The notes beneath the pieces are model-generated. The model made no database searches, was not told the origin of the DNA, and worked only from the letters and a program-made list of their open reading frames with translations. From NCBI RefSeq assembly GCF_000341895.1, contig NC_020409.1, positions 1,380,001 through 1,412,000 on the forward strand: 32,000 nt of DNA. Direction: 5' to 3'. Positions 25,369-26,835 of the stretch are shown here, in pieces. The stretch's first letter is position 1; each line of letters opens with the position of its first letter. This DNA is from Pseudodesulfovibrio piezophilus C1TLV30 (GTDB lineage: Bacteria > Desulfobacterota > Desulfovibrionia > Desulfovibrionales > Desulfovibrionaceae). The translations under genes were made by a program, and so were the position numbers.

Positions 25369-26247
25369 ATGGAAGTGGAGAACCAGAACCGCGTCTACAC
25401 CTTTCGCCACGACGAAGAGGGCCGACGGGCCGCCAAGTACCTCAACGGCCAAATTGTCGAGGCCTACCAATGGTTCGACTTCATCCGCCTCGGCGCGTTC
25501 CACGACGGGCACATGGGGTACGAGTTCGGTTACGCAGATAACGCGCGGCTGCCCTTATCCATGCGGCGCGAGGACGGGGCGGTGTTCGCCCTGCATTACG
25601 ACCAGGTCGGTTCCCTGCGCGTGGTTGCTGACACGGATGGCGACATGATAAAGGAAATCCTCTACGATCCCTTTGGCGGAATTATAGCGGACACCAATCC
25701 CGGTTTCCGCATCCCCATCGGCTTTGCGGGCGGCCTGCATGACCGCGATCTTGGTTTCGTGAGATTCGACTGGCGGGACTACGACACCTTCACCGGCAGA
25801 TGGACCGCACCCGATCCCATCGGGGACAGGGGCGGTGATCCGGACTGGTATGGGTATTGTCTGGATGATCCGGTCAACGGGGTGAACCCGGTGGGACTGT
25901 TCCGGTTCGGTAAAAAAGGACTGTGGATACTGCCCGGTATAGGCACCGACGGCTCTACCGCCGATAAGAGAAACTATGAACTCAAGCATGAACACGGTTT
26001 CTACGAAGATGGTACGGGAGATAATGTAGGTCTGTTTAAAAATGGTATCAAAAGAGATCAAGATATCATCAAATACAAACTTGACGAAACACACTTCGAC
26101 GATAAACGCATGAGACAGGCTGAAGAGAGTCTTTATCCGGGAAATTACAAGCTGTGCAAGTGGGGAGGCAAGTCCAATAATTGCCAGGACTATGCCGATG
26201 CTTTGCGCGAACGTTATCGGTTTTTACGCACTGCGGAAAAGCACTGA
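25369..26247 (+). CDS. RHS repeat-associated core C-terminus fused to a polymorphic toxin tip (CT1, papain-like His...Cys signature)
   Basis: FRHDEEGRR, YDQVGSLR, YDPFGG and GFAGGLHDRDLGFVRFDWRDYDTFTGRWTAPDPIGDRGGDPDWYGYCLDDPVNGVNPVGL form the RHS core end with the DPxGL demarcation. A 115-aa variable tip follows, containing KHEHGFYEDG ... YKLCKWGGKSNNCQDYADAL. Confidence 0.8.
   Translation: MEVENQNRVYTFRHDEEGRRAAKYLNGQIVEAYQWFDFIRLGAFHDGHMGYEFGYADNARLPLSMRREDGAVFALHYDQVGSLRVVADTDGDMIKEILYDPFGGIIADTNPGFRIPIGFAGGLHDRDLGFVRFDWRDYDTFTGRWTAPDPIGDRGGDPDWYGYCLDDPVNGVNPVGLFRFGKKGLWILPGIGTDGSTADKRNYELKHEHGFYEDGTGDNVGLFKNGIKRDQDIIKYKLDETHFDDKRMRQAEESLYPGNYKLCKWGGKSNNCQDYADALRERYRFLRTAEKH
25670..25890 (+). 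repeat. RHS core-end repeat, copy 1
   Basis: 221 bp repeated at 26848-27068 (offset 1178). The copies are near-identical except for a 14-nt divergent patch (25699-25712) and 3 SNPs. Confidence 0.9.
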
Positions 26248-26298
26248 TGCAACAATACGGCCGGGAGACAATTGTCTCCCGGCTGAAAAGGGATTTTT

Positions 26299-26835
26299 AT
26301 GAAAGGTTTAAAGATACTCCTTCTCTGCCTCGTTCTTGGAGGCGTATTATTGTATAATTCCAACTGGTTTCAGTCATTTTTCCTGTACAACCGTTTTTAC
26401 GAGAACATAGTTGATGTACCATTCGATGTGACAAAAAAAGGGGAGACGATTTCCCTTTCACTCAAGCACAAATTCAATACTTGCTATGAGTTGAATGTGG
26501 GGGTTCTTGATAAATACATTTTTCATCGTGGCACTGTTGGCCCAGGGGCTTTGAGGTATCGATTCATTTCAAGAGGCCAAGTCATCAAAGAAGGATTCAC
26601 CTTTCCAGCGGAGAGAAATAATCTCACACTTTATCGAGGGGTTACTTTGATAACCATACTGGTATTCGACCTCCCTTTCCCCGGCGCAGGGAGTGATGTA
26701 TCGCTGGAATTGACAGTAGATACCCCCATGACCTTTCTCAATGAATATGCAGGCAAAATTAAATGCAGCATCCGACCCAACTATAGTGCAGACAGGGGTG
26801 GCTGCGATGAGGAATTACGAATAGACTCCATGTAG
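26299..26835 (+). CDS. candidate immunity protein for CT1, N-terminal signal peptide/TM anchor
   Basis: It starts 52 nt after the toxin ORF, with RBS AAGGGA. MKGLKILLLCLVLGGVLLY is a hydrophobic leader. The GC is visibly low and no domain was recognised. Confidence 0.6.
   Translation: MKGLKILLLCLVLGGVLLYNSNWFQSFFLYNRFYENIVDVPFDVTKKGETISLSLKHKFNTCYELNVGVLDKYIFHRGTVGPGALRYRFISRGQVIKEGFTFPAERNNLTLYRGVTLITILVFDLPFPGAGSDVSLELTVDTPMTFLNEYAGKIKCSIRPNYSADRGGCDEELRIDSM

Follow-up and report, generated by a model that had tools for sequence, protein, structure and literature searches.

The 32,000-nucleotide stretch of DNA analysed here (Pseudodesulfovibrio piezophilus C1TLV30, contig NC_020409.1, positions 1,380,001 to 1,412,000; hereafter the window, whose own numbering is used throughout) contains an RHS-type gene end followed closely by a small gene on the same strand. 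Together these have the layout of a classical RHS toxin/immunity cassette, after which comes an orphan module. The 292-amino-acid (aa) open reading frame (ORF) at 25369..26247 (forward strand) has the C-terminal run CLDDPVNGVNPVGL, then a 115-aa tip (25900..26244), which we call CT1, and a stop codon (26245-26247). The features on which the argument depends are these:

25369..25899, forward strand: last part of the RHS/YD shell, including the RHS-associated core (plug, aspartyl-protease region), matching TEN_YD-shell at E 5e-13 and TIGR03696 Rhs_assc_core at E 9e-16 over residues 99-177

25885..25899, forward strand: degenerate cleavage motif NPVGL, found by direct reading (canonical form DPxGL); the toxin would start after its Leu

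25900..26247, forward strand: CT1 toxin domain, 115 aa plus stop, putative H-box/NC-type (LRAT-like) permuted NlpC/P60 domain

25987-25989 (His30), 26023-26025 (Asn42), 26179-26184 (Asn94-Cys95) and 26182-26184 (Cys95): CT1 residues discussed below

26299..26835, forward strand: cognate immunity candidate, 178 aa, with an N-terminal signal anchor or signal peptide plus a predicted extracytoplasmic domain with invariant C62 and C169, assigned from homologues, alignment and position

On balance, we favor the view that CT1 is an RHS toxin domain, a minimal (~115 aa) H-box/NC permuted NlpC/P60 enzyme that probably acts on envelope lipids and is countered by a membrane-anchored cognate immunity protein. 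The sequence-only reading of this locus had quoted two motif strings from the tip, and both are found there: residues 28-44, LKHEHGFYEDGTGDNVG, span the KHEHGFYEDG region with His30 inside, and residues 83-102, YKLCKWGGKSNNCQDYADAL, span the YKL...NNCQDYA region with Cys95 inside, 65 residues after His30. The two residues on which that reading staked itself proved to be conserved, with His30 kept in 154 and Cys95 in all 155 of a set of aligned, diverse CT1 domain sequences. The same alignment has Asn94 in every sequence, Gln96 in 153, Tyr106 in 153, Asp68 in 152, Tyr83 in 151 and Glu31 in 150, while Asn42 is kept in 141 and replaced by Asp in 7. Besides the His and the Asn-Cys pair, about 15 positions are near-invariant over these sequences, which come from many phyla. 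His30 is the catalytic candidate because His32 varies with Gln, and Asn42 is the likely third polar residue. By this alignment, the His and Cys motifs of CT1 are not due to chance. The tip in the window is 82-87% identical to copies from other assemblies, and its putative catalytic residues are intact.

Comparison of 63 CT1-family members with Pfam at E <= 0.01 gave two recurrent enzyme families, LRAT (PF04970; 16 members, best E 1.1e-5) and Peptidase_C97 (PPPDE, PF05903; 12 members, best E 5.9e-5), and no other. DUF4105, Peptidase_C92 and DUF6695 (TseH) were matched neither by these 63 members nor, at E <= 1, by a set of 21. A precomputed PF04970 annotation is borne by one member only, P0019. 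The best Pfam match of the tip itself was Peptidase_C97 (E 0.064), at 13.5 bits, which does not reach the gathering threshold of 29.2; a SKICH match (E 0.082) looked like noise and was set aside.

Solved structures gave a similar picture once the family profile was used. The tip alone, compared with PDB sequences by phmmer, had no match at E <= 10. The CT1-family profile, searched against 177,635 PDB sequences, matched all nine PLAAT/HRASLS/LRAT sequences (E 0.025-0.5), each of which aligns at the helix-YKL-NC(EHF) region of the profile. The remaining matches up to E 10 were RHS/Tc/teneurin cores, arising from the core columns of the family alignment, and two unrelated NADH-dehydrogenase chains (E 0.7-1.1). 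Alignment of the family with human PLAAT3 by hhalign (the PLAAT3 sequence being identical to PDB 4FA0 over residues 1-134) gave E values of 4.2e-4, 7.8e-5, 8.8e-5 and 3.4e-4 for four versions of the alignment, pairing KY..DD..MRQAEESLYPGNYKL....NNCQDYADALR of CT1 with a PLAAT3 segment that starts with KYQV (RAEE..YKL..NC(E/Q)). In global mode, hhalign returned a probability of 1.5%, and we used the local C-terminal alignment alone. A relaxed extension puts His30 on PLAAT3 His23, in a low-confidence part of the alignment, and the 12 residues between His30 and Asn42 equal the His23-His35 spacing of PLAAT3 as read from the sequence. The Pfam, PDB and PLAAT3 comparisons support the permuted papain-like (LRAT/PPPDE) assignment made in the sequence-only reading, and at the level of sequence profiles they place CT1 in the permuted papain-like superfamily. 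Within the reach of such comparisons, CT1 resembles PLAAT/LRAT or Tox-Act1 enzymes yet is no demonstrable member of any curated family; it is a real new family inside a known superfamily.

The likeness to the PLAAT/HRASLS/LRAT group (human PLAAT3, PDB 4FA0/4DOT) extends to the permuted order, with His before Cys, to the His strand (HWAIY in PLAAT3, HEHGFY in CT1), to the invariant Asn-Cys that opens the last helix (NCEHF and NNCQDY, respectively) and to the helix-YKL that precedes it (RAEELV..YKL and RQAEESL..YKL). Unlike PLAAT, CT1 is bacterial, has no C-terminal membrane anchor and is an RHS-fused toxin paired with an immunity gene; its His-Cys distance is 65 residues rather than 90, and where PLAAT3 has His35 it has Asn, or no counterpart. 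PPPDE/DeSI proteins (PF05903) share with CT1 the His-then-Cys order and a Cys helix of the Y.L...NC..F type, but the CT1 matches to them fall below threshold and no PPPDE structure sequence was matched by the CT1 profile. Rather than toxins, PPPDE enzymes are isopeptidases of eukaryotes or viruses.

AlphaFold2 modeled the tip with a predicted local distance difference test score (pLDDT) of 77.9 from 21 sequences and of 85.6 from 63 sequences (predicted template-modeling score 0.77; five models at 80.9-85.6). The predicted elements are a strand at 2-7, a disordered loop at 11-23, a strand at 29-34 that contains His30, a strand at 42-46 that starts with Asn42, a strand at 49-51, a short strand near 60, a helix at 68-77, a bridge at Lys84 within the YKL of residues 83-85 and a helix at 95-114 that begins at Cys95. 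This order agrees with that in H-REV107/PLAAT3. The best PDB match of the better model by Foldseek was Aichivirus 2A, an H-box/NC protein (E 2.5; template-modeling (TM) scores 0.37/0.41). Against viral predicted structures (BFVD), the best match was a picorna-like polyprotein (E 0.055, probability 0.97, TM 0.55, root-mean-square deviation 3.4 over 115 columns), and a phage protein described as 'permuted papain-like amidase YaeF/YiiX C92' ranked sixth. Picornavirus 2A proteins (Aichivirus 2A, PDB 7ZV1) are small H-box/NC domains and the top Foldseek neighbors in both libraries; they differ from CT1 in being viral replication proteins, and the matches are weak (E 0.055 and 2.5; TM 0.37-0.55). 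In the structure check proposed in the sequence-only reading, the order of elements in the model is compatible with the expected fold, and Foldseek gave no significant match. The modeled fold of CT1 is compatible with a permuted NlpC/P60 fold, and we do not claim structural confirmation.

The gene downstream of CT1 has the properties expected of a partner located outside the cytoplasm. Its ORF starts 51 bases past the toxin stop, and the N terminus, MKGLKILLLCLVLGGVLLYNSNWF, consists of two Lys followed by about 14 hydrophobic residues, which fits the signal peptide or transmembrane anchor that the sequence-only reading had assigned to the 178-aa ORF. All named sources of its 28 homologues are Pseudodesulfovibrio, and no Pfam domain was found in these 28. 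They share the positive start, 14-15 or so hydrophobic residues, a YNTNWFQSFF segment and two invariant Cys (C62 and C169) in the C-terminal domain. From these features, the protein would have a domain in the periplasm stabilized by a disulfide bond, preceded by a signal peptide or by an anchor of N-in, C-out topology. We rejected a lipoprotein reading (LLLC), in which the Cys is unconserved (L, P, S or V in homologues) and the preceding residue is Leu, as well as an NCBIfam Ssi4/Sip4 match (E 0.12; 12 bits versus a cut-off of 240), which is noise.

Pairing of the two genes is conserved. In the window and eight related loci (L001-L008), an immunity homologue follows the toxin on the same strand within about 50 nucleotides in 12 of 13 toxin copies, and its similarity drops as the toxin diverges, from E 1e-95 to 2e-7. 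A wider count covered 49 distinct toxin copies over all loci and several phyla: 48 have a downstream ORF within 250 nucleotides, and in 26 distinct copies a gene of the window's own immunity family (A3) lies 27-68 nucleotides after the toxin or overlaps it. A hydrophobic segment occurs in the first 40 residues of 45 of these 48 downstream ORFs, and 17 have two or more segments. Scored with this crude measure of hydropathy, 23% of the long ORFs in the same loci are positive; the enrichment has a nominal P of 2e-25, which is overstated given the dependence between copies. Toxins from Gammaproteobacteria, Desulfobacterales, Cloacimonadales and Kiritimatiellae are paired with an unrelated membrane protein that is small and polytopic. 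The toxin-then-immunity pair is thus conserved and the downstream proteins have membrane character, and the immunity candidate named in the sequence-only reading stands on its position directly after the toxin and on the hydrophobic starts of its counterparts.

A word-indexed search found 21 CT1 relatives, mostly short RHS ends, with named sources in Pseudodesulfovibrio, Paucidesulfovibrio and Desulfovibrio. With a CT1 profile searched against 1.84 billion cluster representatives (clusters at 50% identity), 744 clusters were obtained at E <= 1e-3; the stricter limit of E <= 1e-10 left 322. CT1 lies at most 30 residues from the C terminus in 151 of 168 proteins examined, and among its carriers are full-length RHS proteins (1215-1714 aa) that also have RHS repeats and DUF6531. 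Sec-type signal peptides start nine of the 11 inspected carriers longer than 1200 aa, the other two being without one or truncated-looking; no PAAR domain was seen in eight carriers scanned, five of them longer than 1200 aa. A scan of species-representative genomes, in which the window's own locus was not among the loci returned and the best match was at 82%, gave 33 CT1 loci in Desulfovibrionales, Desulfobacterales, Cloacimonadales, Kiritimatiellae, several Gammaproteobacteria, an alphaproteobacterium, Melainabacteria and Planctomycetaceae (Planctomycetes). CT1 is a widespread toxin family, with at least 744 of the 50%-identity clusters, of a general type already known and without a model in the libraries searched (Pfam and NCBIfam).

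In a few members, the domain is not C-terminal. P0195 (406 aa) has a CT1-type domain at its N terminus, followed by DUF7619 and DUF11 repeats, and in P0135 (1059 aa) and a 1747-aa ORF of locus L040 the domain is internal; the CT1 domain therefore also exists outside the usual RHS-tip setting. In L002, the last orphan CT1-type tip (7947-8387, P0014) is followed by no immunity gene and has the Cys helix NNCQDSAGKM in place of NNCQDYAD; it is probably a decaying copy.

The closest functional precedent is Tox-Act1, a permuted NlpC/P60 effector of a type VI secretion system whose toxicity is confined to the periplasm and is lost with H43A or C151A (PMC12994826). It cleaves phosphatidylglycerol and phosphatidylethanolamine to lysolipids and is neutralized by an immunity protein associated with the membrane, and the permuted members YiiX, LRAT, TseH, Tox-Act1 as well as DUF4105/Lnb have been assigned to lipid substrates (PMC12994826). 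The Tox-Act1/TseH/DUF4105 clades share with CT1 a permuted NlpC/P60 toxin in bacterial competition and membrane-associated immunity, and some Tox-Act1 homologues are RHS-fused too (PMC12994826, supplement S3A). The part of that paper's LRAT homologue list that was examined consists of stand-alone proteins, none RHS-fused (PMC12994826), and the 2012 catalogue of polymorphic toxins lists canonical Tox-NLPC/P60 (Cys, His, Asp order) and no permuted or PPPDE forms (PMC3482391). CT1 differs from Tox-Act1 in its His-Cys spacing (65 versus 108 residues, H43/C151), in carriers with Sec signal peptides rather than type VI/PAAR features and in its profile affinities, which are to LRAT and PPPDE rather than DUF4105; this last distinction is drawn from missing DUF4105, C92 and DUF6695 Pfam matches.

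By analogy with Tox-Act1, phospholipid deacylation is the most likely activity of CT1; peptidoglycan is another possible target. In the mechanism we propose, His30, on a beta-strand, would activate Cys95 at the start of the C-terminal helix (Asn94-Cys95), with Asn42 as the third polar residue. Cys95 would then attack an acyl ester of a membrane phospholipid, or possibly of another acylated envelope molecule, and the resulting thioester would be hydrolyzed (phospholipase A) or its acyl group transferred (acyltransferase). Acting from the periplasmic or outer side, the lysolipids would damage the target membrane. The product of 26299-26835, with an inner-membrane anchor and a domain on the periplasmic side, would neutralize the toxin there. 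Action at the envelope or membrane is suggested because the immunity proteins are membrane-located and the carriers Sec-exported; the sequence-only reading had argued the same from an exported or anchored immunity protein, and as far as computation goes this holds.

Several observations weigh against this reading. The tip itself has no LRAT match at E <= 1 and no Pfam match of any kind at E <= 0.01, the similarities of CT1 appear to stay under curated Pfam thresholds, and the tip fails the cut-offs of both PF04970 and PF05903. The significant hhalign stretch is confined to the C-terminal half of CT1, and PLAAT3 His35, the second residue of the triad, appears from the alignment to be without a proven counterpart. 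Foldseek against the PDB gave nothing below E 2 for either model (pLDDT 77.9 and 85.6), and PLAAT, PPPDE, YiiX and TseH structures were missing from the lists of both. Hydropathy was scored crudely, and many of the counted copies are related by homology and so do not count as independent. PPPDE-type relatives are peptidases, hence a peptide or amide substrate is possible. Characterized RHS toxins, finally, act mostly in the cytoplasm (PMC12994826).

The alternatives differ mainly in what the His-Cys pair would do. The same fold and dyad could belong to a peptidase or amidase, either a PPPDE/DeSI-like isopeptidase or an NlpC/P60-type peptidoglycan amidase, with peptides of the cell wall or a protein of the envelope as its target in the periplasm. 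Peptidase_C97 is the best Pfam match of the tip and recurs among the members, Tse1 and other toxins with a canonical NlpC/P60 domain are peptidoglycan amidases (cited in PMC12994826; Tox-NLPC/P60 in PMC3482391), and an exported immunity protein would fit equally well. LRAT matches are, however, commoner and slightly stronger than those to Peptidase_C97, PLAAT/LRAT and no PPPDE sequences were matched among solved structures, acyl-lipid bonds are the targets of those permuted NlpC/P60 members that have been studied (PMC12994826), and the small polytopic partners of the distant members (2-4 hydrophobic segments) suit a membrane site better than the cell wall. We therefore regard a peptidase or amidase as unlikely, though still to be taken seriously.

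Rather improbable, in our judgment, yet also a serious rival, is that CT1 is an acyltransferase instead of a hydrolase, moving acyl chains between envelope lipids or onto lipoproteins or lipopolysaccharide in the manner of LRAT or Lnb, with mis-acylation as the toxic event. LRAT, PLAAT and DUF4105/Lnb are acyltransferases with the same Cys-thioester intermediate (PMC12994826), and PLAAT and LRAT chains are the closest sequence relatives of CT1; yet Tox-Act1, the only toxin of the superfamily tested, behaved as a phospholipase (PMC12994826), and the sequence does not discriminate transfer from hydrolysis. A further explanation, in which the His...Cys likeness arose by chance and the tip is non-enzymatic or an unrelated toxin, could draw on the lack of a significant Foldseek match and on sequence matches below curated thresholds. 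We give this explanation very little weight, given the near-invariance of the His, the Asn-Cys and some 15 other positions in 155 sequences from many phyla and the convergence of independent tools on one superfamily.

Identity of the domain is a separate matter from the state of this particular copy, for which three features went beyond the sequence-only reading: an in-frame TAA at 25354-25356, NPVGL in place of DPxGL, and a carrier that is merely a mini-RHS. The upstream part of the carrier gene reads as follows:

24853..25356, forward strand: upstream half of the disrupted mini-RHS, with YD repeats (RHS_repeat/YD_repeat matches), in the same frame as 25369..26247

25354..25356, forward strand: in-frame TAA (nonsense mutation) at the site of a conserved Tyr codon, where the window reads YEYAPD*RLLKMEVENQ

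Start and stop were compared by eye in an alignment with intact relatives of 420-460 aa. The likely true start of the mini-RHS is the ATG at 25000, by comparison with relatives starting MATPYTYKLSHDQNGRI. At the TAA site, the metagenome proteins P0289 and P0292, which are in the same 90%-identity cluster, read YEYAPDYRLLKMEVENQ, and more distant intact relatives read YEYAPDYRLLKV; because the relatives keep Tyr there, the TAA represents a nonsense change of a conserved Tyr codon. At the cleavage motif, relatives and the window's own second copy carry DP(L/V/F)(G/S)L (DPxGL or DPFSL). In Photorhabdus Rhs1, C-terminal autoproteolysis relies on a catalytic Asp in the second DPLGL motif, D1338N abolishes cleavage, and the toxin begins directly after the Leu of DPLGL (PMC8636562). 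The carrier in the window would be a mini-RHS of roughly 415-460 aa with a shell of about 300 aa, and a search for an N-terminal secretion or delivery domain in it gave no domain match. Intact relatives of 403-460 aa likewise have a shell of about 300 aa and no recognizable N-terminal delivery domain, and they occur in arrays. As in an RHS cassette, the core match (TIGR03696) stops at the border of the tip, with Asn in place of Asp in the PxxxxDPxGL motif; the window has no intact full-length carrier with a complete YD shell and a secretion or delivery domain, whereas other taxa do have full-length carriers with Sec signals.

We consider it likely that in this genome the locus is a decayed remnant, from which no toxin is made or delivered and which provides at most an orphan immunity gene. 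As read from the DNA, the CT1 copy carries two disabling changes and is probably non-functional and not deployed; it is probably dead, to judge by the premature TAA at the conserved Tyr, the Asp-to-Asn change in DPxGL (equivalent to the D1338N that blocks cleavage of Rhs1) and the decayed mobile-element neighbors, which comprise a split integrase, Fic fragments and insertion sequence (IS) fragments. The short shell without a recognizable secretion domain points the same way. On the other side, intact carriers of 420-460 aa exist in relatives, and the TAA could be a sequencing error. Decay does not conflict with the identity of the domain, whose catalytic residues are intact and whose close copies are found elsewhere. 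The immunity gene in the window is intact and may still be protective.

The cassette is set between two copies of a core fragment and contains a hairpin between its two genes:

25666..25901, forward strand: direct repeat copy 1, 236 nucleotides, 3' end of the RHS core, 93% identical to copy 2

26258..26285, forward strand: 12-bp GC-rich perfect hairpin, after the stop codon of the toxin and before the ribosome-binding site (AAAGGGA, 26287-26293) of the immunity gene, -26.8 kcal/mol, z -5.6

26844..27079, forward strand: direct repeat copy 2, which opens the orphan module CT2

26937..27395, forward strand: orphan RHS end with a second, glycine-rich tip (CT2), matching Rhs_assc_core at E 1.4e-9; separate from CT1 but in the same array

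The two 236-nucleotide repeats bracket CT1 plus its immunity gene, and G+C content is about 0.60 in the core and about 0.42 inside the cassette, rising again at repeat copy 2. Known RHS/YD cassettes with orphan modules show the same (D/N)PxGL core end, the same low-G+C tip plus immunity gene and the same duplicated core fragment starting an orphan tip; the window carrier differs from them in its small size (~415-460 aa), its disruption and the lack of a secretion or PAAR domain at its N terminus. Single-sequence folds gave an equivalent hairpin, though with another stem sequence, in 11 of 12 related cassettes; RNAalifold on a MAFFT intergenic alignment recovered only 5 pairs, the stems being out of register. 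The hairpin is not a canonical terminator because no U-tract adjoins it; attenuation, mRNA stability and a recombination boundary are possible roles.

The CT2 tip is glycine-zipper-like (GGRIGGGIIGGAISGAIDGG...), followed by a long Gly/Ser-rich tail, and by its sequence looks like a membrane-depolarizing type of toxin. A 57-aa ORF after it (27404-27577), with a single hydrophobic segment, is plausible as an immunity gene. Around the cassette, a decayed mobile region (21962-23220, 24177-24717 and 28212-29101, all on the reverse strand) holds a tyrosine integrase split into two ORFs, Fic fragments (HPFDDGNGR) in several frames and IS4/IS5 transposase fragments (DDE_Tnp_1, DUF4096). A 344-aa ORF at 5588-6622 (reverse strand), surrounded by housekeeping genes for MoeA, AdoHcy hydrolase and ArsR-methyltransferase, matches PF25302 at E 5e-14 ('NAD glycohydrolase translocation F5/8 type C domain') and appears unrelated to the RHS island.

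Mini-RHS genes of 400-460 aa are arrayed in related Pseudodesulfovibrio contigs (L003, L004 and L006), and no full-length RHS gene was seen in the fetched flanks (up to 10 kb) around such arrays. In L004, a duplicated 3' end of a tyrosine-recombinase gene (...LRHKNSMTTTRYIHRLGITKNVLEDVFG; 8069-8287 and 12758-12898) lies directly before each mini-RHS gene, which suggests repeated insertion or recombinase-linked duplication of RHS cassettes. Among the L002 tips at 803-1276 and 2344-3255, one has a phospholipase-A2-like pattern (YGKWGGKNYSGG ... HDLAYE; YxGxG...HDxxY) and another a His-then-Cys arrangement (GHIAV ... YSLGTKDCVDAACN), and both precede small membrane proteins. The arrays seem to be enriched in membrane-directed toxins.

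A broader and more speculative proposal, which we put forward only tentatively, is that CT1 represents a minimal H-box/NC fold and a prokaryotic sister group of animal PLAAT/LRAT and picornavirus 2A, that Sec-exported RHS proteins would deliver it to the envelope lipids of neighboring cells from the outside, and that polytopic membrane proteins would counter it within the bilayer. If true, permuted NlpC/P60 toxins aimed at lipids would have a second, independent lineage in CT1 next to that of Tox-Act1, and CT1 would be a rare RHS cargo with no need to enter the cytoplasm. For the annotation of the P. piezophilus genome, the locus is best described as a probably decayed RHS cassette with an intact immunity gene. 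For the family, CT1 would join the recently recognized lipid-targeting permuted NlpC/P60 effectors, an addition that is unsurprising after the 2026 work on Tox-Act1 and useful to specialists; it links the H-box/NC domains of animal PLAAT/LRAT and viral 2A proteins to a bacterial conflict system, and it offers candidate catalytic residues (His30, Asn42 and Cys95) together with a cognate immunity family.

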